Positions 23,718-64,000 of a DNA stretch of 64,000 nt are shown here, piece after piece. The stretch is taken from positions 486 through 64,485 of the forward strand of contig DATEGE010000194.1 in NCBI GenBank assembly GCA_035280265.1. Reading direction: 5' to 3'. Position numbers and translations under genes: made by a program. Each line of letters opens with the position of its first letter. Position 1 is the stretch's first letter. The stretch comes from Gemmatimonadales bacterium (GTDB lineage: Bacteria > Gemmatimonadota > Gemmatimonadetes > Gemmatimonadales > GWC2-71-9). Below the pieces are notes generated by a model, which saw nothing but the letters and a program-made list of their open reading frames with translations, had not been told where the DNA came from and did not search any database.

Positions 23718-23846
23718 CTACTTGCACGTATTGCTGCCGACGTAGTCACACGCGTGGCTTGGACCGGTGGCATCAGCGCAGGCCGACGCGCCGAGAGCGA
23801 ACGACACGATGAGGAGCGCGACGAGGGTGCGAAGCGAGCGCGACAT
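23718..23846 (-). CDS. 42-aa secreted/lipidated Cys-containing peptide (not in ORF track)
   Basis: My translation is MSRSLRTLVALLIVSFALGASACADATGPSHACDYVGSNTCK. GGAGG lies 5 nt upstream of the ATG. The signal peptide has a lipobox-like GASAC and the mature part carries two further Cys. A tandem regulatory motif lies about 75 nt upstream. Coordinates may be off by 1 nt. Confidence 0.55.
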   Translation of the reverse strand: MSRSLRTLVALLIVSFALGASACADATGPSHACDYVGSNTCK

Positions 23847-23921: not shown

Positions 23922-23961
23922 TTAGGGCGTTTTCGCGACATCGGGGGGCGTTTTTGCGACA
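23922..23961 (-). promoter_or_regulatory. tandem 21-bp-phased motif pair upstream of the 42-aa peptide gene
   Basis: Read on the minus strand: TGTCGCAAAAACGCCCCCC ga TGTCGCGAAAACGCCCTAA. The distal copy abuts or overlaps the AraC start codon. The proximal copy ends about 75 nt before ATG 23846. Confidence 0.5.
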
Positions 23962-24759
23962 ATGCTGGTGCTAGCGGCTGTCCCCGAAGTCCAATACCAC
24001 AAGCTGCGTAGCGCGGCAGCGACGCGGTTTCCCCTGGTGCACGCCCGGGGCTGGACGGACGCCCTCGCGGCGATTCGGGCTCGCCCGGTCGAGCTGGCGG
24101 TGGTCGACCCCCTGCTGATGGGGGTGGCGAGCGCGACCGAGATCGAGCAGTTGCGGAAGATGTTCCCCTCGCTCCCGCTCATCCTCTATACCACGCTCTC
24201 TCCCAAGACGGCGGCAGTACTCCTCGCCCTCGGCTCGACGGGCATCAGCGACATGGTCCTGTTTCGCTACGACGACCACCCCGCCCGGCTGTGCGAGGTG
24301 CTGATGCACGAGGAGGCGCGGTCGGCGTCGCGACAGCTGCTCGATCAGGTCGCTGGCGTGCTCGCGCCGCTGCCGAGTGAGCTGCGCTGGGTGCTGGAGG
24401 AGGTGCTGCGCGCGCCCGCCGAGCTGCAGACCGTGCAGAAGGTGGCCGCGCGCGCCCGTGTCGATCGCCGCACGTTCGAGCGCTGGTTCGCACGGGTGGG
24501 GCTGCCGTCGCCGCGGCACTTCCTTGCCGCGGCGCGGGTCCTGTACGCCCACCGGCTGCTGCAAGACCCGGGCTTCACCATCGAGGACGTCGCCGAGCGC
24601 CTCGGCTACGCGCAGACGAAGACGCTGCAGGCGCACGCCCGCTCCTACCTGGGGCTGACGGCCGGCGAGATGCGCCTTCGGCTCGAGCCCGCCGAAGCCC
24701 TGGAGCGTGTCGCCCAGGGCTTCATGCCGGTCCGCCAGGCGCGCGCCTCCGCGTCGTGA
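23962..24759 (+). CDS. AraC/XylS-family transcriptional regulator with N-terminal receiver-like domain
   Basis: C-terminal double HTH (RTFERWFARVGLPSPRHFLAAARVLYAHRLL...IEDVAERLGYAQTKTLQAHARSYLG). The N-terminal CheY-like fold lacks the usual N-terminal acidic pair (LVLAAVPE). Confidence 0.8.
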   Translation: MLVLAAVPEVQYHKLRSAAATRFPLVHARGWTDALAAIRARPVELAVVDPLLMGVASATEIEQLRKMFPSLPLILYTTLSPKTAAVLLALGSTGISDMVLFRYDDHPARLCEVLMHEEARSASRQLLDQVAGVLAPLPSELRWVLEEVLRAPAELQTVQKVAARARVDRRTFERWFARVGLPSPRHFLAAARVLYAHRLLQDPGFTIEDVAERLGYAQTKTLQAHARSYLGLTAGEMRLRLEPAEALERVAQGFMPVRQARASAS

Positions 24760-25157
24760 GCGCGGCACCCCTCACCGTCCTCATCGTCGAGGACGAGGCT
24801 CCTCTACGGCAGGTGCTGGAGCGCGTCCTCACCAAGTCAGGCTATCGGGTGCTCGGCGCCGGCAGCGCGGAAACCGCGTACGAGCTGCTCGCCTCGCAGG
24901 TCGCCGACGCCGTGTTGCTCGACGTGCGGCTACCAGCCATGTCCGGCCTGGGACTCTATCTCGCCCTCGTGCACCGCACGCCCGAACTGTCGGGGCGCAT
25001 CGCCATCATGACGGGCGACGCCGACGCTGAGCACGTGCGCGCGTGGCTGGAGCGCAATCCGTGTCCCGTGCTCAAGAAGCCCTTCGACCTGCAACAGATC
25101 CTCGACTGGTTGCGGACGGTGCTTCACGTCCCCAGTCGCGAGCGCGGCAACGCCTGA
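24756..25157 (+). CDS. single-domain response regulator (CheY-like)
   Basis: LIVEDEAPLR...VLLDVRLPAMSG...LKKPF. The GTG start overlaps the AraC stop (GTGA). Confidence 0.8.
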   Translation: MSAAPLTVLIVEDEAPLRQVLERVLTKSGYRVLGAGSAETAYELLASQVADAVLLDVRLPAMSGLGLYLALVHRTPELSGRIAIMTGDADAEHVRAWLERNPCPVLKKPFDLQQILDWLRTVLHVPSRERGNA

Positions 25158-45429: not shown

Positions 45430-45469
45430 TGTCGCATTCCCGCCCTGCCGTGCCGCAAAATCACCCTAG
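45430..45469 (+). promoter_or_regulatory. tandem 21-bp-phased motif pair upstream of the coiled-coil gene
   Basis: TGTCGCATTCCCGCCCTGC cg TGCCGCAAAATCACCCTAG. The proximal copy ends 79 nt before ATG 45549. Confidence 0.5.
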
Positions 45470-49175: not shown

Positions 49176-49532
49176 ATGAAATACCTGTGCCTGATTTACG
49201 AGGATGAAAAGGCGGGCCGGACCCTGCCCAAGGGCGAGATGGACAAGGTGATGGCCGAATACTGGGCCTTCACCGACGACGTCAAGACGCGCGGTTATCA
49301 CGTCGCGAGCAACGCGCTCCAGCCCACGAACAGCGCGACGACGCTGCGGATCCGAAACGGCAAGCTCTCGACGACCGACGGGCCCTTCGCGGAGACCAAG
49401 GAGCAGCTCGGGGGCTTCTATCTGATCGAGGCCAAGGACTTGAACGACGCCATCCAGGTCGCGGCCCGGATTCCGTCGGTGCGCTGGGGCTCGGTGGAGG
49501 TTCGGCCGGTTTGGGACCCGCCACGCCCGTAG
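49176..49532 (+). CDS. YciI/DGPF-family protein
   Basis: DGPFAETKEQLGGFYLIE signature. Confidence 0.85.
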   Translation: MKYLCLIYEDEKAGRTLPKGEMDKVMAEYWAFTDDVKTRGYHVASNALQPTNSATTLRIRNGKLSTTDGPFAETKEQLGGFYLIEAKDLNDAIQVAARIPSVRWGSVEVRPVWDPPRP

Positions 49533-50752
49533 CCGAGGCGATCGATGCCGTCTATCGCGCCGAATCCCGGCGCGTCCTTGCGACGCTGATCCGCCTCCTC
49601 GGCGACTTCGATCTCGCCGAGGAGGCGTTGCAAGAGGCCTTCACGGCAGCGGTCGAGCGATGGCCCGTCGATGGCATGCCCGAGAACCCACGGGCGTGGC
49701 TCGTTTCAACGGGCCGCTTCAAGGCGATCGATCATTTGCGCCGCCGTGCCCGCTTCGATGCTTCGCTGACCTCGCTGGCCGATCGGCTCGGCGCCGGCGT
49801 GACGGATCCGCCCGAGCTCGCTGACGACGGTGTCGAGGACGATCGGCTGCGGCTGATCTTCACCTGCTGCCATCCGGCGCTGCCACCCGACGCTCAGGTG
49901 GCGCTCACGCTGCGCGAGGTGTGCGGCCTCACCACTGAAGAGATCGCGCACGCGTTTCTCACCACCGCGCCCACCGTGGCGCAGCGCATCGTGCGCGCCA
50001 AGGGGAAGATCCGGGACGCCGGGATTCCGTATCAAGTGCCGATTCGCGCAGACCTGCCCGAGCGGCTCGACATTGTACTCCACGTGATCTACCTCGTGTT
50101 CAACGAAGGCTACTCGGCGTCGGCCGGAGCGACCGTCACCCGCGCTGACCTCTCCGCCGAGGCGATCCGGTTGGGCCGCCTGCTTGTCGAGCTGCTGCCT
50201 GATACAGAGGTGCAGGGCCTGCTCGCGCTGATGCTGCTCCACGACTCGCGTCGCGCGGCGCGCACGTCCGATACGGGCGAGATCGTGCTGCTCGACGACC
50301 AGGACCGCTCGCGGTGGGACCGTGCGCAAATCGCCGAGGGACTCGCACTGGTGGGGCGGGCGCTCGCGGCGCGGCGCGCAGGGCCGTACACGCTACAGGC
50401 GGCGATCGCCGCGGTGCACGCGAGGGCCGCCACCCCCGCCGCCACCGCTTGGGGGGAGATCGTGGAATGGTACGACGTGCTGCTGCGCCTGGACCCCTCG
50501 CCCGTGGTGGAGCTCAACCGCGCCGCCGCGGTGGCGATGCGCGATGGCCCGGAGGCCGGGCTCGTCCTGATCGACGCGATCCTCGCGCGCGGCACGCTGA
50601 GCGAGTATCATCTCGCGCACTCGGCCCGAGCAGAGCTGCTGCGCCGGCTGGGGCGACGCGACGAGGCCGTCACGTCATACCGGCGCGCGCTGCAGTACAC
50701 GACGCAAGAGCCCGAACGGCGGCTGCTGGAGAAACGACTGCATGGCCTGTGA
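49511..50752 (+). CDS. ECF sigma factor with C-terminal TPR-like extension (ECF42-type)
   Basis: Sigma regions 2 and 4 (DFDLAEEALQEAF...PRAWLVSTGRFKAIDHLRRR; LTLREVCGLTTEEIAHAFLTTAPTVAQRIVRAKGKI) plus a ~200-aa helical C-terminal extension. Lies immediately downstream of a DGPF gene. TTG start. Confidence 0.8.
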   Translation: MGPATPVAEAIDAVYRAESRRVLATLIRLLGDFDLAEEALQEAFTAAVERWPVDGMPENPRAWLVSTGRFKAIDHLRRRARFDASLTSLADRLGAGVTDPPELADDGVEDDRLRLIFTCCHPALPPDAQVALTLREVCGLTTEEIAHAFLTTAPTVAQRIVRAKGKIRDAGIPYQVPIRADLPERLDIVLHVIYLVFNEGYSASAGATVTRADLSAEAIRLGRLLVELLPDTEVQGLLALMLLHDSRRAARTSDTGEIVLLDDQDRSRWDRAQIAEGLALVGRALAARRAGPYTLQAAIAAVHARAATPAATAWGEIVEWYDVLLRLDPSPVVELNRAAAVAMRDGPEAGLVLIDAILARGTLSEYHLAHSARAELLRRLGRRDEAVTSYRRALQYTTQEPERRLLEKRLHGL

Positions 50753-53276: not shown

Positions 53277-54260
53277 ATGATAAATACGGTCAGGTGGACG
53301 CTGTGCGTCGGGGCGGGGCTGGTCCTCGCGATGCAGACGCCGAGCGTCGTCGAATACCCGCTGCCCCGCGCCAAGGCGTTCCCGCACGACCCCGCGGTGG
53401 GCCGCGACGGCATCGTTTGGTATACCGACCAGGCGAACAGCTACATCGGCCGGCTCGACCCCGCGACGGGGAAGGTGACCGATTATGCCACTCCGACCCC
53501 GGCCTCGGGGCCACACGGCATCGTCGTCGCACCCGATGGTGGCGTATGGTACACGGCGAACTTTCAGGGCCGACTGGGCCGCCTCGATCCCACGACCGGA
53601 GCGATCAAAGAGTACGTGCTCCCCTCCGAAGCGCGCGATCCTCACACGCCGCTATTTCATCAGGGCAAGGTGTGGTTCACAGTCCAAGGCGCGAACCTGT
53701 ACGGCCGGCTCGACCCTGCGACGGGCGAAGCGAAGATCTTCCCGGTCCCCACGCCCCGGGCGCGCCCGTACGGCCTCGTCGCCGGTCCCGACGGCGCGAT
53801 TTGGATGGCGCTGTTCGGCGCCAACAAAATCGGCCGCATCAATCCGGCGGATGGTGCGCTGCGCGAGTTCTCGCTCCCCGACGACGGCGCCCGGCCCCGC
53901 CGCTTGGCAGTGGACGGAAAGGGAATCGTGTGGTACACCGACTACGCCCGCGGCAAGCTCGGCCGGCTCGATCCGACGACGGGACAGGTGCGCGACTTCG
54001 CGAGCCCCGGGGGTCGTGGCAGCGCGCCGTACGGGATCGCCGTCGGCACCGATGGGCGCATCTGGTATGATGAGTCGAGCAAGGACGCGATCGTGGCGTT
54101 CGATCCCGCGACCGAGCGCATACAGACCGTGGCGATCCCCACCCGCGGGTCTGTGGTGCGCAACATGAGCGTGGATTCGACCCGCAAACGGTTATGGCTC
54201 GCCGAGAGTGGCATTCAGCGACTGGGGAAGATCGACCTGACCCAGGCACCGACGCCCTAG
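53277..54260 (+). CDS. Vgb-like (streptogramin-lyase fold) beta-propeller protein
   Basis: Signal peptide followed by about 7 repeats of the type G.(V/I)WYT....(G)RLDP.TG....(F/Y). Confidence 0.7.
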   Translation: MINTVRWTLCVGAGLVLAMQTPSVVEYPLPRAKAFPHDPAVGRDGIVWYTDQANSYIGRLDPATGKVTDYATPTPASGPHGIVVAPDGGVWYTANFQGRLGRLDPTTGAIKEYVLPSEARDPHTPLFHQGKVWFTVQGANLYGRLDPATGEAKIFPVPTPRARPYGLVAGPDGAIWMALFGANKIGRINPADGALREFSLPDDGARPRRLAVDGKGIVWYTDYARGKLGRLDPTTGQVRDFASPGGRGSAPYGIAVGTDGRIWYDESSKDAIVAFDPATERIQTVAIPTRGSVVRNMSVDSTRKRLWLAESGIQRLGKIDLTQAPTP

Positions 54261-54295: not shown

Positions 54296-54335
54296 TGTCG
54301 CGTTTCCGCCCCTCGGTGCCGCGAAATCGCCCTAG
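54296..54335 (+). promoter_or_regulatory. tandem 21-bp-phased motif pair upstream of the dihaem cytochrome genes
   Basis: TGTCGCGTTTCCGCCCCTC gg TGCCGCGAAATCGCCCTAG. The proximal copy ends 61 nt before ATG 54397. Confidence 0.5.
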
Positions 54336-54396
54336 TATCTCGTCGCGCACCTCCGAGATTTGTTGTCGGACGCTGATCCGCGCAACGAGGTGATCT

Positions 54397-56538
54397 ATGG
54401 CCACCGATTCGCCGGTCCAGTTCGATCCCCGATCGGTCACCCGCATGTCCCGCGTCGCGCTGGACAATTTCTTCCGCCGAAGTCCCCCCGGACCGATTCC
54501 CGCCGGGCGCGCTCGGGGGACGGCGATCGTTTTCCCCGGGTCGGCGTTCACGGGTATCCTGGCGTCGCTGGCGCGCGCGCTGTTCTGGCAGGGGAAGGTC
54601 TTCACCCCGGAATCCGGCGACCTGCGCAATCTGATCACGCCGTTCGGAGTCCGGGCAATCCGCGCGAAGGTGTACCAAGACGAGAGCTGGTTTGCCAGCG
54701 GGCCGGCAATCATCCTCGACTACTCTCAGACGTCCTTCGTGGCACGGAAGATCCGCGATGAGATCCGCCTCGTGAGCCAGGGTGTCTATCTGGGTCAGGT
54801 TTACTGGGGCAAGCGCCGTATCGCACTGTTCATGCTGCAGTTCCCCACTGACACGCCCGCGCCGAGCCCTCTCGCTGGGGGACGATCGACGGCGACGCTG
54901 TCCGGTGTCGGTGTACTGCTGCAAGGCGTGTGGACGAGGTTTCTGCAGGCAAGCCGCTGGATCGGCGTCACCGTGCTCGCCTCATTGCTGATCGGCGGTG
55001 CCTATGTCTGGGCGCGACTCCGTGACGATCGGCCCGTCACCTACGTCGAGACCCGCGAGCACTTCAAGTATGGCTCGACCGGCGGAGAACGGGGTTGGGG
55101 GACCCATCTCGGGTTTGGGATCCCCTACTGGGTCTGGATCGCGCTGCCCGAACTGTTTCCGGAGTACCTGCCCGACCGCCAGCGCGGGAACGGCTACACG
55201 TCGTTCGGCATGATCTACGAGGATGGGAAGGATCCGCGCTTCGACCTACCGATCGGCATGTCGAGGCGGCGTGTCCAGGGCATCGATCGCGTGTACTTCA
55301 ACTGCGCGGTGTGTCACACGGGCTCGGTACGCCCGGCGCGCGGTGCGCCCCGCGAGGTCGTACTCGGCATGCCGGCCAACACGTTCAACCTGGGCGCGCT
55401 CGCGCAGTTCCTCAATAAGGCCGCGGGGGACTGGAAATTTCGGGCGACGCGCATCATGCCTCGGATCGAAGACCTGGAGGCCCAGCGCGCCGAACAGCCT
55501 CGCTCCCAAAACATTCCCCGACCCAGGCCGTTCAGTCCGGTGGACCGCTTCGTGTTCCGCTACCTCGGCGTCATGTTGCTGCGCGAGCAGCTCCTCACCC
55601 TTACGTCCCGGCTCTCGTTTCTCCGGCTCGACACGTGGGGCCCGGGGCGCGTCGACACGTTCAATCCCCCCAAGGCGCTGCTCGGGTTCCCGATGGAGCG
55701 GGCGCCGGAGCAGGAGAAAGTGGGCGTTGCGGCGTTTCCGGCCGTGTGGAATCAGCAGTGGAAGGAAGGTATGCAGCTCCATTGGGACGGGAACAACACG
55801 AGGGTGGATGAGCGCAACTTGAGCGCGGCGTTCGGGACCGGGGCTACGCCCACGACGCTGGACAAGGCGAGCGTGCTGCGTACCGCCGGCTTCTTGTGGG
55901 ACAAGGCGCGTCCTCCCGCCTTTCCAGCGGGCTACATCCGAGCCGACCTCGCGGCGCGGGGCGAGCCGTTGTATCGCCGGCTGTGCTGGTCCTGCCACGG
56001 CAATGGGCAGCCCCCGTTCCACACGCCTGGCGACGGCAGCCTCGTGGGCATGGTGACGCCGCTCGCCACCCTCGGCACGGACCCGGCCCGACTCGACTCA
56101 TACACGCGCGTCCTTGCGGCCGCGCAGAACTCCTTATACGCGGGGTTCCCGGCCGACGAGGAATGGTGTCGGGAGCGCCCGCGAGATGTGGCGCGCTGCT
56201 ACCCCGCGCGATTCAGCCATTTCCGCAAAACCAACGGTTACGCGAATGTGCCGCTCGACGGCCTATGGCTGCGAGCGCCCTACCTCCATAACGGCTCCGT
56301 GCCCGACCTGCAGGCGTTGCTCGAGCCGGCGCACGCGCGGCCCGCCGTCTTCTATACCGGCTACGACGTGTACGATTACCGGCGCGTCGGCTTCATCACG
56401 CAGGGACCAGACGCCGAGCGGTATGGGTGGCGATTCGACACGAACGTGCGCGGCAATGGCAACAGCGGTCACGAGTTCGGGACGAGCCTCTCGGGTGCCG
56501 ACAAGGCGGCGCTGATCGAGTACCTGAAGACGTTCTAA
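54397..56538 (+). CDS. membrane-anchored dihaem c-type cytochrome, CCP/MauG-like, with extra cytoplasmic N-terminal domain
   Basis: Two CxxCH motifs (CAVCHTG, CWSCHGNG) and a LRAPYLHNGSVPDLQALLEP segment like the conserved APY(F/L)H(D/N)GS..TL of cytochrome c peroxidases. One TM helix (WIGVTVLASLLIGGAYVWARL) follows a ~165-aa N-terminal domain. Paralog of 56579..58177. Confidence 0.6.
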   Translation: MATDSPVQFDPRSVTRMSRVALDNFFRRSPPGPIPAGRARGTAIVFPGSAFTGILASLARALFWQGKVFTPESGDLRNLITPFGVRAIRAKVYQDESWFASGPAIILDYSQTSFVARKIRDEIRLVSQGVYLGQVYWGKRRIALFMLQFPTDTPAPSPLAGGRSTATLSGVGVLLQGVWTRFLQASRWIGVTVLASLLIGGAYVWARLRDDRPVTYVETREHFKYGSTGGERGWGTHLGFGIPYWVWIALPELFPEYLPDRQRGNGYTSFGMIYEDGKDPRFDLPIGMSRRRVQGIDRVYFNCAVCHTGSVRPARGAPREVVLGMPANTFNLGALAQFLNKAAGDWKFRATRIMPRIEDLEAQRAEQPRSQNIPRPRPFSPVDRFVFRYLGVMLLREQLLTLTSRLSFLRLDTWGPGRVDTFNPPKALLGFPMERAPEQEKVGVAAFPAVWNQQWKEGMQLHWDGNNTRVDERNLSAAFGTGATPTTLDKASVLRTAGFLWDKARPPAFPAGYIRADLAARGEPLYRRLCWSCHGNGQPPFHTPGDGSLVGMVTPLATLGTDPARLDSYTRVLAAAQNSLYAGFPADEEWCRERPRDVARCYPARFSHFRKTNGYANVPLDGLWLRAPYLHNGSVPDLQALLEPAHARPAVFYTGYDVYDYRRVGFITQGPDAERYGWRFDTNVRGNGNSGHEFGTSLSGADKAALIEYLKTF

Positions 56539-56578
56539 TGGCACGCGCAGGCGCGATACGCGTGGGGAGGTTCGGGCC

Positions 56579-58177
56579 GTGATGCATGACGAGAGCCGGA
56601 CGAACGGCTGGAAGCGCCGCGTGGGCCGTATCCTGATCGTGCTCCTCTTGATTGCCGCGCCACTCGCGGGCTTGGCATGGTACAAGTTCTTCCGGGAATT
56701 GCCTCAGCCAAAGGCGATCACCGAGGATCCCGAGACGAACTTTCTCTACGGGTCAATCGGCTCCGAAAACCAAGCGGGTATCCCATACTGGATCGTGGTG
56801 GTGTTGCCCCGGATCTTCGACGACATGTTGCCCGGTCCCGGCGGCTACGCCTCGCTCGGCCTCCCGTGGAAAGAGGGGGTCGAGCTGCCAGCCGGCTTCT
56901 CCAAGAAGACCGTCGGCTTTCCGCGGGTCGGCTTCAATTGCGCCCTGTGCCACGCCACGCAGTACCGCACGGCGCCTGACGCGACCCCGACGATCGTCGC
57001 CGCCGGCGGCAGCAACACGGCGGACATCCAGGGACTGCTCGAGTTCCTCAGTCGGGCTGCAAACGATTCCCGCTTTGGATCCGAGACGATCATCGCCCAG
57101 ATCGACGTGGCGTATCGGCTGAGCTGGCTGGATCGGCTGCTCTACAAATTCGTGTTCATCCCGATCACCAAGAAGCGCCTGCAACAACAGGGGCGGTCCT
57201 TCGCCTGGGCCGCCCACCGGCCGCGTTGGGGCCCGGGCCGTGACGCGCCGATGAATCTGACCAAATTCAACTTCCTCGGGCTGCCCGTGGACTCGAGTGT
57301 CGACCACACCGACTTCCCGGCGATCTGGAACCTGCAGACGCGGGTGCAGGCCGGCCGAACGTGGCCCGGTGACGACGACGCGCTCACCGGGGATTGGTCG
57401 AAGGTCTCCGGCTACCGGCCCCGCCTGATGCTGATGAACCTCGATGGCGCAACGACATCGTTCCGCTCCGTGATACTCGATTCGGGTCTCGGACTCACTT
57501 CGCGCAGCTCTCCGTTCTTCCTTCGGCGCATGACGGAGCTCGAGACGTGGCTTCTAAAGCTGCCTCCGCCGAAGTATCCGCTGCCGGTGGATTCGGCCAC
57601 CGCGACGCGGGGCAAGGTGGTGTTCGAGCAACAATGCGCCATCTGCCACGCCAGCGGACGTGACAACCGCCTGGGCACCGTTATCCCGCTGCCAGAGATC
57701 GGGACCGACCCGGAGCGGGCGAACGCCTGGACGCAGCAGGCGGCCGACAGCGCTAACCGAGCCGTCCGCGACCAATTCGGGATTCATCGAACGCCGATGG
57801 TGAAGCCCGAGGCGGGCTACGTCGCCCTCCAACTGGACGGGATCTGGCTGCGCGGGCCCTATCTACACAACGGCTCCGTGCCCACGGTGCGTGCCCTGCT
57901 CGAGCCCGAGGAGCGGCGGCCCAAGGCGTTCTATCGCGGGTACGACGTCCTGGATCAGCGGAACCTCGGATTCGTATCCCGGCGCTGCACCGAACACTTC
58001 GCGGAGGCGCCCACCGGCGGCCGGTCGGGCGAGTCCCAATGGGGATGCATGCCCGACACCGACGGCTGGCGATACGACACGGCGGAGCGTGGGAACAGCA
58101 ATCGAGGTCACCGCTACGGGATCCGCCTGAGCGACGCTCAGAAGGCCGAGCTGGTGGAGTACCTCAAGACGTTCTGA
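56579..58177 (+). CDS. membrane-anchored dihaem c-type cytochrome, CCP/MauG-like (paralog)
   Basis: N-terminal TM anchor (ILIVLLLIAAPLAGLAWY), two CxxCH motifs (CALCHAT, CAICHAS) and LRGPYLHNGSVPTVRALLEP. Collinear similarity to 54397..56538 (GIPYW..V.LP.IF, FNCA.CH, KAELVEYLKTF / KAALIEYLKTF). Confidence 0.6.
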   Translation: MMHDESRTNGWKRRVGRILIVLLLIAAPLAGLAWYKFFRELPQPKAITEDPETNFLYGSIGSENQAGIPYWIVVVLPRIFDDMLPGPGGYASLGLPWKEGVELPAGFSKKTVGFPRVGFNCALCHATQYRTAPDATPTIVAAGGSNTADIQGLLEFLSRAANDSRFGSETIIAQIDVAYRLSWLDRLLYKFVFIPITKKRLQQQGRSFAWAAHRPRWGPGRDAPMNLTKFNFLGLPVDSSVDHTDFPAIWNLQTRVQAGRTWPGDDDALTGDWSKVSGYRPRLMLMNLDGATTSFRSVILDSGLGLTSRSSPFFLRRMTELETWLLKLPPPKYPLPVDSATATRGKVVFEQQCAICHASGRDNRLGTVIPLPEIGTDPERANAWTQQAADSANRAVRDQFGIHRTPMVKPEAGYVALQLDGIWLRGPYLHNGSVPTVRALLEPEERRPKAFYRGYDVLDQRNLGFVSRRCTEHFAEAPTGGRSGESQWGCMPDTDGWRYDTAERGNSNRGHRYGIRLSDAQKAELVEYLKTF

Positions 58178-59480
58178 AGCGGACCAGCTTCTCGGGGAAC
58201 GTGAAGGGCACGGGATCGCGAGCCAACACGTCGCAGTGGACGCTGAGACCAGACTCCGCGACTAGCATCGCGGCGGCTCCCTTACAGACGAACAGAATGA
58301 GCTCCCGCCCCGGACAATGGCGCGCGCCGCTCAGGAATACGTTCGGGTAGGCGGCTGCGGCCTTCGCCGGCGTATCCAGCCACCGCTCCGGATGAAAGGC
58401 ATTCGCTGTCTCATCGGCGGCCCGGTCGCGCTGCGTCAGCGAGAAGACGTGGAGGATTTCACTGCCCGGAGGAATGCGGGTGCCCATCATGACGTCCCCC
58501 GCGGGGGCCCGGTGAAACGTGCGGGTGACCGGTGGAAAGAGCCTTCCCGCCTCCAGGAGGCAGGCCTCGAGATAGCGCAATCGATCGATCGACGCGGGTG
58601 CGTCGAGTGGGCCCGCGCCGGCGATCTCGCGGCGCACCCCCGCGAGGACTTCCGGCCTCGACCCGATCAGCGCGAGGCCCCGGGCGAGGAGGTCGGCGCC
58701 GGAGCCTGAAAAGGTGAACATCCAATGCGGCATCTGCTGTAGCAGCGCCTCGGGGTTTCCATCCGCACCGGCCGCTCGCGCGATCCCGAGCAAGCTGGTG
58801 CGCGCCGCGCCGTCGGACCGTTGTCCCCCCTGTCCCGCCAGTCCCCCCCACGCTTGTCGCAGGCTGCCGTACAGCACGCGGAGCCGGCGCCGCTCGATGG
58901 CTCCCCACAGCAGGCGCTTGAGCGGACTCTGCACCAGGCCGAACAACACGCGAATGTCCGCGCTGAGGCGTTCGGGCGCAACGCGCTCACCGAAGACGAT
59001 GTTCAGCATCGCCTGTCCCATGCGGTCGCGAACATCCGCGACCGTCGCGACGGGCCCGGAGAACGCCCGGCGCGCGTGGCCGAGGAACTCACGCTGGAAG
59101 TCGTGCGGCCTCCCCGCGCACAGCACCCGCTCGTTGAAGGGACGCAGTCGCTGCCACGCCGCGTCGTCCGTGATGGTGAGCGCCTGGGGTGCCAGGTAGC
59201 TCATCGCCTTGCGTTTGAGCGTGCCAGCAACGTACGCCGTGGTGCGTGGCTGCCCGGCGAGAATGTGACGAGAGAGATTTTGGTCCGTCACAAGCAACAG
59301 TCGCAATGCGAGGAGATTCAGGACCACATTGGCGCTGTGGTAGCGCACCGTCAGGTCTTTCATCCAGTCGTGCAACACCAGGCTCGGGTCGAACGAACGC
59401 GGTGCGCGCACGGCCGCCTTCAGTAGCCGTGACCCCAGCCTGCAGAGATCGAGGAAGCTGGTCGTGGGATAAGTATTCAC
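58164..59480 (-). CDS. cytochrome P450 (atypical I-helix)
   Basis: Cys-ligand loop FLSGARHCPGRELILF, an ExxR-like EAGR and a PERF-like FHPERW. The I-helix region FSGSGADLL lacks the (D/E)-T pair. Start placed at GTG 59480, which shares one nt with the upstream stop (TAGTG). The track start at 59534 is an alternative. Confidence 0.75.
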   Translation of the reverse strand: MNTYPTTSFLDLCRLGSRLLKAAVRAPRSFDPSLVLHDWMKDLTVRYHSANVVLNLLALRLLLVTDQNLSRHILAGQPRTTAYVAGTLKRKAMSYLAPQALTITDDAAWQRLRPFNERVLCAGRPHDFQREFLGHARRAFSGPVATVADVRDRMGQAMLNIVFGERVAPERLSADIRVLFGLVQSPLKRLLWGAIERRRLRVLYGSLRQAWGGLAGQGGQRSDGAARTSLLGIARAAGADGNPEALLQQMPHWMFTFSGSGADLLARGLALIGSRPEVLAGVRREIAGAGPLDAPASIDRLRYLEACLLEAGRLFPPVTRTFHRAPAGDVMMGTRIPPGSEILHVFSLTQRDRAADETANAFHPERWLDTPAKAAAAYPNVFLSGARHCPGRELILFVCKGAAAMLVAESGLSVHCDVLARDPVPFTFPEKLVRFRTS

Positions 59481-62263
59481 TACTGCCGCGGCCCGAACGC
59501 CTCGTCCGATTCCGCGCCCTTCCTCGGCTTCCACTCGAGCGAGTAGTACTCCCCACGGTCACGGGCCCAGGGATCGAACGCGTTCACCACCTGGGTCAGC
59601 TCGGGCGTGAGCTCCGGGAGAGTACGGAGCAGTATCCGCTTCAGCGGAGACACTGGCTGGTGCTCGTGACCATTCACGGCTTGTTCCTCGTACGCAGGTG
59701 CCGGGCCGTTGTCATTGACCCAGTCGACGCCGAGGCTCGTGTAGAACTCCGGGCGAAAGCTGGACGTGAAGAAGCGGTCGCTGTAGAGGCGCCGCGAGGC
59801 GTTCAGGATGAAGACCACGAACTGCGTCTCCGAAATGGCGAAACCGTGCGGCCGGGTCGATTCGGCGAGCCAGCCGACCACCGTGTCGATGTCCTCGACG
59901 TTGTCGACCAGCGACCCGTCCGGGTGGCCGAGACAATCGTTGATCGCCCGGCCGCCGGTGTCCAGCTGAGCCAGGGTGATCACCTTGCTACTGTCACACC
60001 GATGTTGTCCATACACCTCGCGCAAGGTGGCTACCAGCTTGGCCTGCGCCTTCCGGTCCTCGGCACTCTCCGAGAATCGCTGGTCGATGAAGTCGTCGAA
60101 GCTCGTGAGTTGGCGCAGCCCGTATTGTCTTCGGAACTCGTTGAAGCGAGGGACGCCTCGCTCGCGATCGCGAATCAAGTCCAGGGCGGCCACGTCGAGC
60201 CTCTGCGTAGGGCTCGTGAGCCGGCGCATGTAGAGGTTCTGCAGGAAGCGCGGGTGGTTCTGGAGCGCGAGCAAGCCGAGGCGTTGCCGACCCATGCTCA
60301 GCGCCCAGTTGGCCAGCCCGCGTTCATGCATGAGATCGGTCGCCTTACCTCGAAACGTCGCGACGACGGGGATCTTCTGCGTGATGTCGTTGGGGTTCGC
60401 GACCTCTCGATATTCGATCAGGTCCGGCACCAAGGGATGGAGCCGGTAGACGGTCACGAACTCTTCCGGGAAGTTGAACGGCGAGCCGAAGTGATTGGCG
60501 CCACCGTTGACATCGTCCGGATTGGAGAGACTCCAATCCGGCTTGTGGCTGCCCAGTCCGAAGATCCCGGGGCCGGACGCAAGGATCGAATACCACGTGT
60601 TGGCGTCGCTGGCGGACGCTGATCGGCCCAGGTGCGACACCGCGGCGGCGAGTGCCTCCGAGACCCCGCTTTCCTTCCCCAGGAGCCCGTTCCAATTGCT
60701 GTTCATCCCGCGGTACAGAGGCTCGTCGTACAGCAGCTGCGTCGTCCACTCGATCGTGTGGATCTTCGCGATCTCCGCGGCAACGACGAGGCGCGCGGCC
60801 TCGAACAGCTCGTCGGGCGTGACATCGCGATACCGGATCACGTGCTGCGGGTTCGCAGGGTCGCGCAGTCCCGAATCCCCGTCGGGGTTCTGGGCCGTGC
60901 GGCGACGGAACTCGTCCACGAACTGATTGTGCTCGCGAGCGAAGACGTTGTGAAAGAAACTCAGCCCGATCGTCCAGTTGTCGGGGAACCCGGTGGCCTC
61001 TTGACCCGCCCAGTCCGGGTTCATCGGATCGAAGGGCGCCAGCACCGGGAGATACCCCTGCCGATCACCGGCGGCAGTCGCCGTCGGGACCGCGATCATC
61101 AGCAGCCGGGCAGGATCGCGCGGATCGCGCTTCACACGCAATCGGGAGCGTTGATCGTAGCCGTACAGTTGCGACGCGTCCCACCACGCCGTGTTCGTGT
61201 TCCGGAAGGTCTTCGGTGCCCGCGCCAGGTACTCGCGGCCGTCGCGCACGAACCGGCCGGGTGCGCTCGTGTCGCCCACGTAAGCCCGCTCCATCGCGTC
61301 GCCGGGCCGGCACCCGAGGCGTCCGGCCTCCGCCGCCGAGAGCGCGCAGCCCACGTTCATGTACTCCGAGCTGTTGTGCCCCTCTTCGAGGTGCGAGAAC
61401 CAGTCATGGGTCATGAACTGGATCCAGAACGCCGCCAGCACATTGAAGAACGGGGCCTTCTTGTAATCGCAATTGGCGTCCTTGGCGAACCTCGGCTTGC
61501 CGTAGCCATCCGCACAGGCTGCGCTGTCGGATTGGGCTCGCGTAAACAGCTTGCGACTGATCACCTGCGGATCCGGCCTCATCAGGCTCAACCGGTTGCC
61601 GTGACGGTTGCGGGTGATCTCGTTCAGGCCGGCATCTGGAAACGTGGTCTCGAACTCCACGTTTCGGGCGAACGGTGTTCCCGTGGACCCCATGAGGGGG
61701 TTGCGGATGTCGTTACAGATCCCGGTGAGCGTACGGGATCGGATGAGCGCGGCCCGGCAGAGCTGCGGTCCGCTGCCGCCTACCTCACGGTAGTTGGGAT
61801 GAGAGGGGGGCAGACGCATCTCGGGCCACGTCTTGAGCGCCGGCCCCTCGGTGCTGTCGCGACCCATCCGATACTGCGGGAAGGTGCCGTTGTTGTCGAA
61901 CAGGTTGAACTTGATGAGCTCGACGCGCTCGTACTCCAGGTCCACCAGCGCGCCGTTAACGCCTCGCATGTTTCGCGTCGACCAGAACGACTTCGTCGCA
62001 GCGTCCCCAGCACCGTAGTAGTTCGCCCAATCGACCCACGGCACGCCGCGCCGCTGCACCGCGGTTTCGCCGCCGCGGCACCGGGCGGTGCTCGATTGCA
62101 CTTTGGCTTGGAATCGATGGTCGCGACTCGCCGCGATGGGCCGCGCGCCGCTGCTGATATCATCGACGCAGCCCATGAGACTCGAGGCCACGCCCTTGGT
62201 CCTGTCGCAGGATGCCAGCGCGAGCGCCAGGCCGCCGGCCAGGAGACACGGAGTTCCGCGCAT
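59480..62263 (-). CDS. haem fatty-acid dioxygenase-like lipoprotein (animal haem peroxidase / cyclooxygenase superfamily, alpha-dioxygenase-like)
   Basis: FFNVLAAFWIQFMTHDWFSHLEEG (distal His region, very close to the plant alpha-DOX WIQFMIHDW signature), NTAWWDASQLYG, FPEEFVTVYRLHPLVPD (candidate catalytic Tyr), LIRDRERGVPRFNEFRRQYGL and VEDIDTVVGWLAE. Lipoprotein signal MRGTPCLLAGGLALALASC. ATG 62263 is preceded by GGAGG at 5 nt. Confidence 0.75.
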   Translation of the reverse strand: MRGTPCLLAGGLALALASCDRTKGVASSLMGCVDDISSGARPIAASRDHRFQAKVQSSTARCRGGETAVQRRGVPWVDWANYYGAGDAATKSFWSTRNMRGVNGALVDLEYERVELIKFNLFDNNGTFPQYRMGRDSTEGPALKTWPEMRLPPSHPNYREVGGSGPQLCRAALIRSRTLTGICNDIRNPLMGSTGTPFARNVEFETTFPDAGLNEITRNRHGNRLSLMRPDPQVISRKLFTRAQSDSAACADGYGKPRFAKDANCDYKKAPFFNVLAAFWIQFMTHDWFSHLEEGHNSSEYMNVGCALSAAEAGRLGCRPGDAMERAYVGDTSAPGRFVRDGREYLARAPKTFRNTNTAWWDASQLYGYDQRSRLRVKRDPRDPARLLMIAVPTATAAGDRQGYLPVLAPFDPMNPDWAGQEATGFPDNWTIGLSFFHNVFAREHNQFVDEFRRRTAQNPDGDSGLRDPANPQHVIRYRDVTPDELFEAARLVVAAEIAKIHTIEWTTQLLYDEPLYRGMNSNWNGLLGKESGVSEALAAAVSHLGRSASASDANTWYSILASGPGIFGLGSHKPDWSLSNPDDVNGGANHFGSPFNFPEEFVTVYRLHPLVPDLIEYREVANPNDITQKIPVVATFRGKATDLMHERGLANWALSMGRQRLGLLALQNHPRFLQNLYMRRLTSPTQRLDVAALDLIRDRERGVPRFNEFRRQYGLRQLTSFDDFIDQRFSESAEDRKAQAKLVATLREVYGQHRCDSSKVITLAQLDTGGRAINDCLGHPDGSLVDNVEDIDTVVGWLAESTRPHGFAISETQFVVFILNASRRLYSDRFFTSSFRPEFYTSLGVDWVNDNGPAPAYEEQAVNGHEHQPVSPLKRILLRTLPELTPELTQVVNAFDPWARDRGEYYSLEWKPRKGAESDEAFGPRQ

Positions 62264-62319
62264 GTCAACCTCCGCCATCACCGTCCAGCCCGGAGGTTAG
62301 GGCGTTGGGGGAGCGCGAA

Positions 62320-62359
62320 CAAGGGCGTTTTTGCGGCATCAAGGGGTGGTTTTGCGGCA
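62320..62359 (-). promoter_or_regulatory. tandem 21-bp-phased motif pair upstream of the dioxygenase-P450 genes
   Basis: Read on the minus strand: TGCCGCAAAACCACCCCTT ga TGCCGCAAAAACGCCCTTG. The proximal copy ends 56 nt before ATG 62263. Confidence 0.5.
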
Positions 62360-62371
62360 TGGCGCGACGGC

Positions 62372-62411
62372 TGTCGCACAAACGCCCTACCGTGCCGCAA
62401 AAAAGCCCTAG
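62372..62411 (+). promoter_or_regulatory. tandem 21-bp-phased motif pair upstream of the patatin-like gene
   Basis: TGTCGCACAAACGCCCTAC cg TGCCGCAAAAAAGCCCTAG. The proximal copy ends 52 nt before ATG 62464. Confidence 0.5.
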
Positions 62412-62463
62412 TCCGCGGGACTGCGGCTGCCAACTTGGAGTCGTCTCCGCTCTTGGAGTCGCC

Positions 62464-64000
62464 ATGCAGACGCCCCGGTTACTCCGCAGCTCCCTCGAAC
62501 GGATCGGACTCACCATCCCGCCGCGCTCCGCCGAGGAGGCGCCGCTGCCGTTGTGTCTCATCCTCGAAGAGGAATACCGGCGGCTCCACCCCGAGCACCC
62601 GCTGGAGCTCACGTGGCTGCTCGAGCCCGATCACGTGCTCGACCTGCCCCGATTGGCCTCCAAGCTCACCACCGCCGACGATCCGGCGGCGGCTTGGCTG
62701 GCGGGCCAACTCTCCACGGAGACGACTCCTCTCCTCAGGCGCTCCGTGCGGGGCGAGGCGGTGCCCCGGCAGCAGGTGTTGTCGGCATTACTGAAGGACC
62801 TCAACTGGCTACTCGAGAAGGATTCGCTCGGCGCGCATCGCGCGTTCGCGAGTCTCCGCCTTCCCCGCATCACCGCCGACTTGCTCGCGCGGCAGCCCGA
62901 TGGGGACGCACGTGTGCACCTGAACCGCCTCCTCCTGGAGGCCGCGTTCCCGGACGCCCTGGCGCGCATTCACGCGGTGCGCCTCACCGCGTTCTACGTC
63001 GCGACCCAGCAGCACTCCACGACCGCCCTGTGTCTATCGGGAGGCGGAATTCGCAGCGCGACTTTCGCGCTCGGCCTGCTGCAAGCGCTGGCACGGCACG
63101 GGGTGTTGCAAGAGTTCGATTACCTCTCGACGGTCTCCGGCGGCGGCTACATCGGAAGCTGGCTCACCGGATGGATTCATCGGGTCGGCCGCGAGGCGGC
63201 GATCGACGCACTACGCCGTAGCGTGGCGGGGGACGCGCCCGACCTGCCGGGCAAGCCGAGGGATCCTGTGGAGCCCGAGCCCGTGCCTATCCGACAGCTG
63301 CGAGCCTACAGTAACTACCTCGCGCCACGCTTAGGCCTGCTCTCAGCCGACACGTGGACGCTCTTGGCGATCTACCTGCGCAACCTATTCCTGAATTGGC
63401 TCGTCATTCTGCCCCTCCTCGCTGCGGTGTTGCTGCTCCCGATCTTGGCGGTGACGGTTGTCCGCGCGCACGTCGTGGTGTCGCTCGCCCCGTGGCGCTC
63501 CGTCGTCCCTTGGGCCATGGCGGTCGGATTGGCGCTCGCCGTGCTCGCCATCCGTTACGTCCACGCGCAGTGGCCGAGTAAGCAGGCGTCGCGTCCGCCC
63601 AGCGCGCGAAGCCCCCACCCCAGCGACCAGCGGCAATTCTTGCGGCGGTGCCTCCTGCCGCTGTTGGGGGCGACCGCCTTGCTTACGACGGTGTGGGCGT
63701 GGCTCACGACAGCGGGAACCTCGCTGGTGCCGCCGCTCGCCTGGAACATGGCGGGCGTGACACTGCACTCGAGCGCACCACTCGGATTCGCCGCCATCGG
63801 TGGCTTGTTGCACCTGAGCGGGTGGCTGCTCACGCCACGTCGGCTCGTCCCGCTCACGCTGCTGCAGGGCGTGGTGGTCCTGATGACCGGCGCCATCGGT
63901 GGGCTGGTCGCGTACGCCGCGGCAGCGGAGCTGTTCGGCGAGCAGTGGAGCGAGGACGCTCCGGCCGCCGAGTGGTACGTGTGCTTTGCGGCCCCGCTGT
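62464..64000 (+). CDS. patatin-like phospholipase with multi-TM region (3' end outside window; absent from ORF track)
   Basis: I translated this frame by eye from ATG 62464 to the window end and found no stop. It has an oxyanion motif CLSGGGIRSATFALGLLQAL and a nucleophile elbow DYLSTVSGGGYIGSW, followed by several hydrophobic helices (LVILPLLAAVLLLPILAV, AMAVGLALAVLAI, ...). GGAG lies 5 nt upstream of the ATG. Confidence 0.7.
   Translation, partial: MQTPRLLRSSLERIGLTIPPRSAEEAPLPLCLILEEEYRRLHPEHPLELTWLLEPDHVLDLPRLASKLTTADDPAAAWLAGQLSTETTPLLRRSVRGEAVPRQQVLSALLKDLNWLLEKDSLGAHRAFASLRLPRITADLLARQPDGDARVHLNRLLLEAAFPDALARIHAVRLTAFYVATQQHSTTALCLSGGGIRSATFALGLLQALARHGVLQEFDYLSTVSGGGYIGSWLTGWIHRVGREAAIDALRRSVAGDAPDLPGKPRDPVEPEPVPIRQLRAYSNYLAPRLGLLSADTWTLLAIYLRNLFLNWLVILPLLAAVLLLPILAVTVVRAHVVVSLAPWRSVVPWAMAVGLALAVLAIRYVHAQWPSKQASRPPSARSPHPSDQRQFLRRCLLPLLGATALLTTVWAWLTTAGTSLVPPLAWNMAGVTLHSSAPLGFAAIGGLLHLSGWLLTPRRLVPLTLLQGVVVLMTGAIGGLVAYAAAAELFGEQWSEDAPAAEWYVCFAAPL

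Follow-up and report, generated by a model that had tools for sequence, protein, structure and literature searches.

Haem fatty-acid dioxygenases with cytochrome P450 companions are familiar from animals, where cyclooxygenase (COX) is paired with CYP5 or CYP8, and from fungi, where dioxygenase (DOX) and P450 (CYP) domains are fused. Here we describe a gene cluster at the end of a 64,000-nucleotide (nt) stretch of DNA from a soil bacterium of the Gemmatimonadales (hereafter the window), in which the gene of an alpha-dioxygenase-like haem protein overlaps that of an atypical P450, and which also encodes two RoxA-like dihaem cytochromes, a small beta-barrel domain and a patatin-like phospholipase. 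The cluster resembles three described systems, yet it is a member of none of them. In the fungal DOX-CYP fusions (Ppo/linoleate diol synthases, DOX-AOS and DOX-EAS), a haem dioxygenase of the same superfamily is tied to a reductase-free P450 (PMC13049297). The Nostoc 10S-DOX neighbours a catalase-related hydroperoxide lyase, a separate haem enzyme that acts on the hydroperoxide (PMC13049297). In Pseudomonas aeruginosa, PA2077 and PA2078 are RoxA-like tandem paralogues that constitute a fatty-acid dioxygenase and a diol synthase; their haem motifs are separated by 235-245 residues, and they contain PYFHNGSVP (PMC4496055). The prokaryotic entries of a 2026 review comprise only cyanobacterial 10S-DOX and alpha-DOX, neither of them with a P450 partner (PMC13049297).

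The fungal enzymes are single polypeptides with a dioxygenase of the 8/9/10-DOX type, whereas the window dioxygenase is of the alpha-DOX type and is encoded, together with the P450, by two genes coupled through a 1-nt overlap. The two window proteins, moreover, are predicted to be separated by the inner membrane, unlike the domains of the fungal fusion. With Nostoc the window shares a prokaryotic haem dioxygenase and a separate haem partner, the partner in the window being a P450. The Pseudomonas pair acts without a haem-b dioxygenase or P450, and we know of no alpha-dioxygenase with a coupled P450, in which respect the window enzyme differs from those described. An earlier note made from this DNA (the original prediction) had placed five adjacent genes here and had not recognised their combination as described. 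All five are present in the open reading frame (ORF) list of the window, from which gene coordinates were taken (Table 1), and we called their families from Pfam profiles, NCBIfam models, PDB sequence matches, tblastn and direct reading of the sequence. The combination of an alpha-DOX-type dioxygenase, a P450 of its own subfamily, a barrel protein and membrane-anchored dihaem proteins is one that we did not meet in the literature searched. A full-text search returned no description of a bacterial dioxygenase-P450-dihaem cluster, which, given its incomplete coverage, is absence of evidence only, and the terms sought were absent from the partial text available of the Chem Rev octadecanoid review.

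We regard the dioxygenase-P450 linkage as established, and as exceeding chance, by its recurrence in other genomes. On the dioxygenase side, the partners were sought by tblastn in the 80 best orthologue loci (loci compared are given as L001, L003 and so on), and in counting arrangements L083/84/85, L087/88 and L091/92 were each taken once. Besides the window, the P450 adjoins an An_peroxidase gene in 14 of 14 distinct P450-bearing arrangements examined, which span Gemmatimonadota, Gammaproteobacteria, Desulfobacterota, Thermoanaerobaculia and Dehalococcoidia and display several gene orders. The dioxygenase stop codon (TAG) and the P450 start codon (GTG) overlap by one base in the window, confirming the translational coupling that had been proposed, and in relatives the junction is a 4-nt overlap or a 1-nt gap. 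Where P450 homologues are 46-52% identical, the adjacent dioxygenase measures 541-791 amino acids (aa), is ~30% identical to that of the window and has no evident lipoprotein signal. Loci reached via the barrel protein contain the same dioxygenase-P450 core. The order patatin-DOX-P450 was observed in L019, L020 and L021, and DOX-P450 in L053 and L073; L022 has P450, a small gene, two dihaem genes and DOX on one strand, and in L036 and L081 the dihaem pair comes after DOX. Genes of RoxA-like proteins, in most cases a conserved pair, are present in L022, L036, L081, L086, L087, L089 and L090, and the pair is kept as two orthologous groups in L022, L036, L081, L089 and L090. The barrel protein and the dihaem genes are thus frequent members of the cluster, and the patatin gene is an occasional one. 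Judged from these sequences, the cluster is a real, conserved and apparently undescribed lipid-oxidation module; the complete mediator pathway of the original prediction does not follow from it.

We then considered what each component might contribute, beginning with the dioxygenase. This protein matches PF03098 (An_peroxidase) at 3e-68, and its best PDB matches are the alpha-dioxygenases of rice (4kvj, 1.2e-56) and Arabidopsis (4hhr, 1.5e-53), with the FFNVLAAFWIQFMTHDWFSHLEE segment aligning with the distal-His segment of the rice enzyme. After correction of the rice residue numbers for the three-residue offset of the 4KVJ chain, rice His157 (the distal His) corresponds to window H286, Tyr379 (the catalytic radical) to Y606, and His382 (the proximal His) to H609. 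Likewise, His311 corresponds to H502 and Arg558/Arg559 to R824/R825; these residues presumably bind the substrate carboxylate, a role that we take from established knowledge of the 4KVK structure. An alignment of 12 orthologues drawn from several phyla showed H286, H502, Y606, H609, R824 and R825 all to be invariant, along with the lipobox cysteine (LASC; Cys19) and ten further cysteines. This makes an exported, disulphide-rich lipoprotein with the active site of an alpha-dioxygenase the best reading of the dioxygenase, in agreement with the earlier assignment to the animal-haem-peroxidase/cyclooxygenase superfamily with a plant alpha-dioxygenase signature. Since the carboxylate-binding His/Arg-Arg set of alpha-dioxygenase is kept, the sequence points to oxygenation at C2 and chain shortening, rather than to endoperoxide or mediator chemistry. 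Of the claim of a complete oxylipin-type mediator pathway, the genes, families and linkage stand, and the mediator chemistry is not supported.

The window enzyme nevertheless departs from the alpha-dioxygenases of plants and cyanobacteria, whose distal His, proximal His, Tyr and His/Arg-Arg site it shares. Those enzymes are ~620-640 aa long, soluble or monotopic and without a secretion signal, whereas the window protein has 927 aa, ~300 residues more than the plant enzyme, and a lipobox. Its ~170-aa N-terminal extension, ten extra invariant cysteines, lipoprotein signal and predicted extracytoplasmic location are its own, and identity with alpha-dioxygenase is limited to conserved blocks. Members of this uncharacterised family, 63-79% identical across phyla, are encoded in at least 563 GTDB species genomes, with carriers in Gemmatimonadota, Acidobacteriota, Nitrospirota (including Ca. 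Manganitrophus), Gammaproteobacteria, Desulfobacterota, Methylomirabilota and Binatia; the nearest named homologues belong to metagenome-assembled genomes of Gemmatimonadaceae, and NCBIfam holds no model for the family. These features might suit a periplasmic peroxidase acting on Mn(II), a halide or phenolics, as some bacterial animal-haem peroxidases do, with the cluster serving extracellular oxidative chemistry: the location would be extracytoplasmic, the Cys-rich extension and the ~300 additional residues would have a place, and the orthologues in Ca. Manganitrophus come from an Mn oxidiser. However, true peroxidases match the window protein at 6e-5 (peroxinectin) or worse among PDB chains, 50 orders of magnitude worse than alpha-dioxygenase does, the Tyr-x-x-His radical motif and carboxylate-binding Arg-Arg are invariant, and lipase genes are the commonest neighbours, all of which makes a peroxidase of this kind very improbable. 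As separate observations, orthologues of 930 aa are 63-79% identical over at least seven phyla (L004-L082), which implies either very strong constraint or recent horizontal spread, and in L090 (5149-7722) the dioxygenase is broken into several short called genes although tblastn spans its whole length, so that this copy is either a pseudogene or affected by long-read frameshift errors.

The P450 matches PF00067 at 3e-13 in its C-terminal half only. It is nonetheless a true P450, with a Cys loop of canonical length (FLSGARHCPG), an ExxR motif and a PERW motif, and has no signal peptide. Its best PDB match is CYP170A1 (2.7e-8), and no allene oxide, prostacyclin or thromboxane synthase is named among the 43 PDB P450 matches listed at E ≤1e-3. 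The original prediction had compared it with CYP74, CYP8 and CYP5 enzymes; affiliation with these was not borne out by the PDB matches listed. The Cys-ligand loop of CYP74 carries a nine-residue insertion, which is not present in the window protein. By its sequence the P450 forms a subfamily of its own, with 317 database matches and weak affinity to characterised families. Across 27 members of this subfamily the I-helix reads Q-x-P-H-W-M-F-T-F-(T/S)-G-S-G where AG-x-[ED]-T normally stands, with Q249, H252 and W253 invariant. The acid-alcohol pair for O2 activation has thus been lost, a property shared with enzymes of the CYP74, CYP8A and CYP5A type. In addition, no ferredoxin or reductase gene was called in any locus examined. 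Because the acid-alcohol pair is absent and no such gene was called, the P450 would suit catalysis on a peroxide substrate, in place of O2 and electrons. At its 3' end, the P450 gene overlaps the convergent dihaem gene no. 2 by 14 bp, so the convergent orientation that had been reported is also correct.

Convergent with the P450 are the two tandem, membrane-anchored dihaem proteins, which we confirmed as paralogues with 30% identity, each with two CxxCH motifs and a PYLHNGSVP motif. In no. 1 the motifs are CAVCH303, CWSCH530, PYLHNGSVP628 and GNGNSGH686, and in no. 2 they are CALCH121, CAICH353, PYLHNGSVP427 and GNSNRGH505, giving a spacing between the CxxCH motifs of 227 and 232 residues, respectively. 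Protein no. 1 is predicted to consist of a cytoplasmic barrel, a transmembrane helix (residues 188-206) and a periplasmic dihaem domain. The Pfam families suggested for the cluster were An_peroxidase (PF03098), p450 (PF00067), Patatin (PF01734) and CCP_MauG (PF03150), and of these the first three were matched by the respective proteins. Typing of the dihaem proteins as cytochrome c peroxidase (CCP)/MauG enzymes was not upheld: PF03150 did not match at E 0.01, nor did any CCP/MauG chain in the PDB at E 1. Instead, both proteins matched PF21419 (RoxA-like_Cyt-c) above the gathering score (4e-14 for no. 1 and 2.5e-15 for no. 2), and RoxA (4b2n) was the sole solved structure matched by sequence (2.2e-9 and 1.3e-9). 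RoxA shares its Pfam domain and axial ligands with the window pair, and the GNxNxGH motif of both proteins aligns with RoxA GNDNGGH, which holds the axial His641. The pair are not rubber oxygenases by NCBI criteria, scoring 54-80 bits against RoxA, RoxB and RoxC compared with NCBIfam equivalog cut-offs of 900-1000.

Comparison with PA2077/PA2078, as the original prediction had proposed, is reasonable. By published motif positions alone, both pairs are adjacent RoxA-like paralogues with two CxxCH motifs ~230-245 residues apart, PY(F/L)HNGSVP and a C-terminal axial His. The window pair is membrane-anchored, whereas PA2077 and PA2078 are soluble with cleaved signal peptides, and the distance from haem 2 to PYxHNGSVP is 73-97 residues in the window pair against 178 in the Pseudomonas pair. 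The dihaem proteins could alternatively be periplasmic peroxidases in a process of fatty-acid alpha-oxidation and peroxide detoxification that makes no product of its own, in which the dioxygenase would shorten or hydroxylate fatty acids and the P450 would be a scavenger that, like the dihaem proteins, limits harm from lipid hydroperoxides, much as PA2078 has been suggested to protect against the product of PA2077. Such a process would be consistent with the retention of all alpha-dioxygenase residues, with the NCBIfam model that both proteins match above its cut-off of 150 bits (NF040606, "di-heme-cytochrome C peroxidase"; 169 bits for no. 1 and 168 for no. 2), with recurring neighbours of peroxidase type (DyP-like and weakly catalase-like), and with the toxicity of unpaired PA2077 (PMC4496055). 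It is harder to reconcile with the lack of any match to CCP_MauG or to a CCP/MauG structure, and a dedicated, tightly coupled P450 subfamily and a conserved barrel partner exceed what scavenging needs; most dioxygenase-bearing genomes do without these proteins. We therefore consider detoxification an unlikely account of the cluster.

The cluster has a sixth component that the earlier note overlooked. Residues 1-150 of the 713-aa dihaem protein no. 1 form a small domain that matched no Pfam family even at E 10 and that has 675 database homologues, nearly all of them stand-alone proteins of 147-177 aa. An AlphaFold (AF2) model built with the database homologues predicts a helix-capped beta-barrel (predicted local distance difference test, pLDDT, 77). 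Its sole confident fold match is Tcur_1030 (4mve), an uncharacterised structural-genomics protein (E 4e-6; template-modelling (TM) score 0.64), and weak matches include fatty-acid-/retinoid-binding proteins (FABP) and lipocalins (E ~0.02; TM score 0.35-0.45); allene oxide cyclase is absent from the fold matches. A lipid-binding role is only a suggestion of this model. The barrel protein occurs with the P450 in L019, L021, L022, L053, L089, L090, L091/92 and L094. In L089, which shares the gene order of the window, the barrel is encoded by its own 157-aa gene, the stop codon of which overlaps the dihaem start as ATGA, whereas the window junction has no in-frame stop and its frame is continuous. 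The single frame in the window (54830-54960), set beside the separate overlapping genes of L089, L090 and L022, is either a genuine fusion or a one-base assembly indel.

Divergent from the dioxygenase, and running beyond the window as had been noted, is the patatin-like phospholipase gene. It is complete on the parent contig (ENA ERZ27257080 k141_1393439; 68 kb) at L001 2024-5275, and is followed there by two overlapping 53-codon genes and then by an RND membrane-fusion protein and RND pump (L001 1-2000). The protein matched PF01734 twice (2.5e-9 and 6.4e-9; 36.7-38 bits against a cut-off of 27.7) and has the catalytic motifs GGGIRS193, TVSGGG around Ser225 (with Thr as the first Gly of GxSxG) and SDGG at 905 (DGG905); a PDB search with it gave no match. 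About eight transmembrane helices (segments 300-695) separate the Ser half from the Asp half. Because the Ser motifs precede these ~8 helices, DGG905 follows them and there is no signal peptide, both halves are probably cytoplasmic.

To place the patatin among other neighbours, all ORFs of the 80 best dioxygenase orthologue loci were clustered. Lipase-type proteins with unrelated folds were the most frequent genuine neighbours of the dioxygenase: ABHD18 in 11 of the 80 loci (4e-41), usually ≤~55 bp away and in two cases 167 and 413 bp away, a Tle1-like phospholipase in 10 (4e-77) and a patatin in 5. Because lipase-type genes are the commonest neighbours, this pattern supports free fatty acids as the likely substrate. 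An FAD_binding_4 oxidase lies directly downstream of the dioxygenase in 8 of the 80 loci, and P450-bearing loci also hold Old-yellow-enzyme, GMC oxidoreductase, DyP-like and LCAT-like genes, which suggests downstream handling of aldehydes, alcohols or enones. In Acidobacteriota (L024, L026, L028, L030, L038-L042, L044, L046, L057, L060, L061, L071, L072 and L077) the dioxygenase lacks both P450 and dihaem partners and in most cases adjoins an ABHD18 hydrolase or a Tle1-like phospholipase, often with an FAD_binding_4 oxidase. Separately, two proteins recur in loci of the P450 type (L019, L020, L021, L036, L053 and L083), one of ~400 aa whose similarity to catalase is below threshold and one of ~480-565 aa weakly similar to DyP_N, and in L036 the weakly catalase-like gene takes the usual P450 position. 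One member of the catalase-related group scored 7.5e-5 against Pfam Catalase (22.4 bits against 25), another did not match it and there was no PDB match, so that this partner is a weak lead only; matches of the DyP-like partner to DyP_N were likewise only weak.

The occasional presence of the patatin raises the question of whether the cluster is a single system. Two or three unrelated functions might lie side by side, with the RoxA-like pair cleaving exogenous polyisoprenoids or other alkenes, the patatin acting as a membrane-maintenance or conflict-system lipase, and only the dioxygenase and P450 forming a true unit. RoxA, RoxB and RoxC are indeed the sole named equivalogs matched, only 4-5 of 80 loci have a linked patatin, the conflict-type genes TIR, CHAT and TPR-S stand beside the dioxygenase at some related loci, and the upstream motif described below is not exclusive to the cluster. 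Nonetheless, the RoxA/B/C scores fall far under their cut-offs, and at least seven loci, which come from several phyla and differ in gene order, combine dihaem genes with those of the dioxygenase and P450, including the same-strand operons of L022 and L090. The five window proteins have no PADLOC match, and the barrel domain, otherwise tied to the P450, is fused to a dihaem protein in the window. An assemblage of unrelated functions thus seems improbable to us. As an observation on the flanks, some dioxygenase-P450 loci (L091 1-400 and 13723-18453; L094 8459-12049) are bordered by CHAT, TIR_2, TPR-S and LCAT-like lipase genes and by a metallo-beta-lactamase fold with a lamin-tail domain, genes of the conflict-system type; a defence-system reading of the window itself found no support in PADLOC, which matched none of its five proteins.

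Taking the components together, the reading that we lean towards, with confidence only slightly on its side, is a conserved envelope-spanning fatty-acid oxygenation module with an alpha-dioxygenase-like core and a coupled P450. In this proposal a lipase would free a fatty acid from membrane lipid, and the periplasmic dioxygenase would bind its carboxylate via His502 and Arg824/Arg825. With a Tyr606 radical it would then form a fatty-acid hydroperoxide, most probably at C2, the position that alpha-dioxygenase oxygenates. This hydroperoxide, or an aldehyde from its decay, would be converted by the P450, acting independently of oxygen and reductase, and/or by the dihaem pair, whose role might be that of the Pseudomonas 10S-dioxygenase/diol synthase or of peroxidases of lipid hydroperoxides. 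On the cytoplasmic side, the barrel protein may serve to carry the lipid or to present it.

Several points weigh against this envelope-spanning module. About 70 of the 80 best dioxygenase orthologue loci have no P450, dihaem or patatin gene by tblastn, and in L003, the closest GTDB relative, the dioxygenase is directly convergent with a dihaem gene and there is no P450. Partner-bearing loci were patchy in a neighbour-joining tree, where they fell in two parts, with none in the large Acidobacteriota and Nitrospirota clades. Since the dioxygenase occurs without them in most genomes, the partners would be an accessory extension of it. The PDB search linked the P450 to none of the known hydroperoxide-converting P450s, and a 2-hydroperoxide breaks down spontaneously and, in plants, is not known to have a P450 partner. 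The upstream motif also marks two apparently unrelated units, and so may belong to a broader regulon. Finally, a simple linear pathway is at odds with the predicted compartments. The patatin catalytic halves, which have no signal peptide, the P450 and the barrel are predicted to be cytoplasmic, and the dioxygenase and dihaem domains periplasmic; the mixed topology of which the original prediction warned is thus borne out and is worse than it stated, extending to the patatin. A linear route from lipase to dioxygenase to P450 would therefore require two crossings of the inner membrane. Fatty acids can flip across membranes, so these crossings are not fatal, but they count against the simple scheme and leave room for two parallel branches.

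Upstream of the cluster genes we identified a 17-nt motif (consensus TGYCGCRAAAnnGCCCT on the coding strand), in tandem copies phased by 21 bp. The window contains 8 matches, against 0.1 expected from shuffles, and the distance from the end of each motif pair to the start codon that it faces is 53-79 bp. In the dihaem-operon pair, the copy at 54317-54333 has 2 mismatches to the consensus and the weaker copy 21 bp upstream was read by eye. The motif stands before all three transcription units of the cluster, as had been claimed, but it is not confined to them, as two further units carry pairs (Table 1). Apart from the copy that belongs to the window itself, the 94 loci contained no tandem pair within 4 mismatches. 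The motif is evidence for co-regulation of the three cluster units, perhaps as part of a regulon that is somewhat larger. A pair of direct 17-nt repeats with a 4-nt spacer has the classic geometry of AraC half-sites. Given this geometry and its adjacency to a motif pair, the AraC-type protein is a reasonable candidate regulator of the motif.

Table 1. Genes, domains and motif copies of the window
Feature	Position	Strand	Remarks
RoxA-like dihaem cytochrome c no. 1	54397-56538	+	713 aa, including fused barrel domain
Small ~150-aa beta-barrel domain	54397-54846	+	fused in frame to dihaem no. 1; no Pfam family
RoxA-like dihaem cytochrome c no. 2	56579/56582-58177	+	532/531 aa; N-terminal membrane anchor
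Atypical cytochrome P450	58164-59480	-	438 aa from GTG; longer ORF to 59534
Alpha-dioxygenase-like haem protein, predicted lipoprotein	59480-62263	-	927 aa; Cys-rich N-terminal extension
Patatin/cPLA2-like phospholipase	62464-64000, beyond window end	+	1083 aa on parent contig
Dihaem-operon motif pair	54296-54335	+	TGTCGCG..GCCCCT / TGCCGCGAAATCGCCCT; ends 62 bp before ATG
Divergent-region palindrome, imperfect, 46 nt, four 17-nt copies	62314-62417		between dioxygenase and patatin genes
Divergent-region copies, one strand	62322-62338 and 62343-62359		
Divergent-region copies, other strand	62372-62388 and 62393-62409		
Further motif pair	23924-23961	-	between 42-codon ORF and AraC-type regulator gene
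Further motif pair	~45431-45467	+	~80 bp upstream of small membrane-protein ORF, likely ATG 45549
AraC/XylS-type helix-turn-helix protein	23962-24759	+	PF12833 HTH_18 3.9e-14; abuts motif pair

Some features around the motif copies are recorded here for completeness. The 42-codon ORF (23718-23846, minus strand; MSRSLRTLVALLIVSFALGASACADATGPSHACDYVGSNTCK) lies 78 bp downstream of a motif copy and has a GGAGG ribosome-binding site, and its product has, by eye, a signal-peptide-like start and a predicted mature peptide of ~20 residues with three Cys; a TPR protein (22426-23694) lies on the far side of this ORF and the motif pair. The gene of the AraC-type helix-turn-helix protein is followed, with a 4-bp overlap, by that of a stand-alone receiver-domain protein (PF00072), the two together occupying 23962-25157. 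Just before the patatin ATG (62434-62461), a 10-nt sequence, CTTGGAGTCG, is repeated exactly and in direct orientation at a distance of 18 bp, and its second copy provides the GGAG ribosome-binding site of the patatin gene. The region before the RND pump (L001 1-2000) contains TTGTTGCGGCA / CGTCGCACAA, which resembles the cluster motif.

With respect to the wider surroundings, GC content is even over the window (0.65-0.71), and there is therefore no sign of a genomic island. Directly upstream of the cluster (53277-54260) lies the gene of a beta-propeller protein of the Vgb-lyase family (PF24684, 2.4e-62), whose N-terminus is signal-like and which is not kept beside the dioxygenase elsewhere, apart from one weak match in L016. 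Further upstream (49176-50752), a YCII-family gene overlaps the gene of an ECF-type sigma factor with a DUF6596 domain.

As a tentative extension of the envelope-spanning module, an extension that we hold to be possible though rather doubtful as a whole, soil bacteria of many phyla may possess a prokaryotic counterpart of the eukaryotic phospholipase-haem dioxygenase-P450 oxylipin cascade. It would be composed of an extracytoplasmic alpha-DOX-like lipoprotein, a hydroperoxide-specialised P450 subfamily with an HW I-helix, a new calycin-like partner and a RoxA-type pair. Acting across the inner membrane, these would produce defined oxidised lipids that might serve, under the control of an AraC-type regulator, as signals of envelope stress or between bacteria. 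A dioxygenase-P450 gene pair conserved in bacteria would bear on the origin of such cascades, and is of interest to the oxylipin and P450 fields. Alpha-dioxygenases, hydroperoxide-acting P450s and RoxA-type oxygenases are also of interest as biocatalysts, for aldehydes, diols and alkene cleavage. The linkage would, moreover, give a testable function to a P450 subfamily with 317 database matches and to a barrel protein that has no Pfam family and 675 of them.

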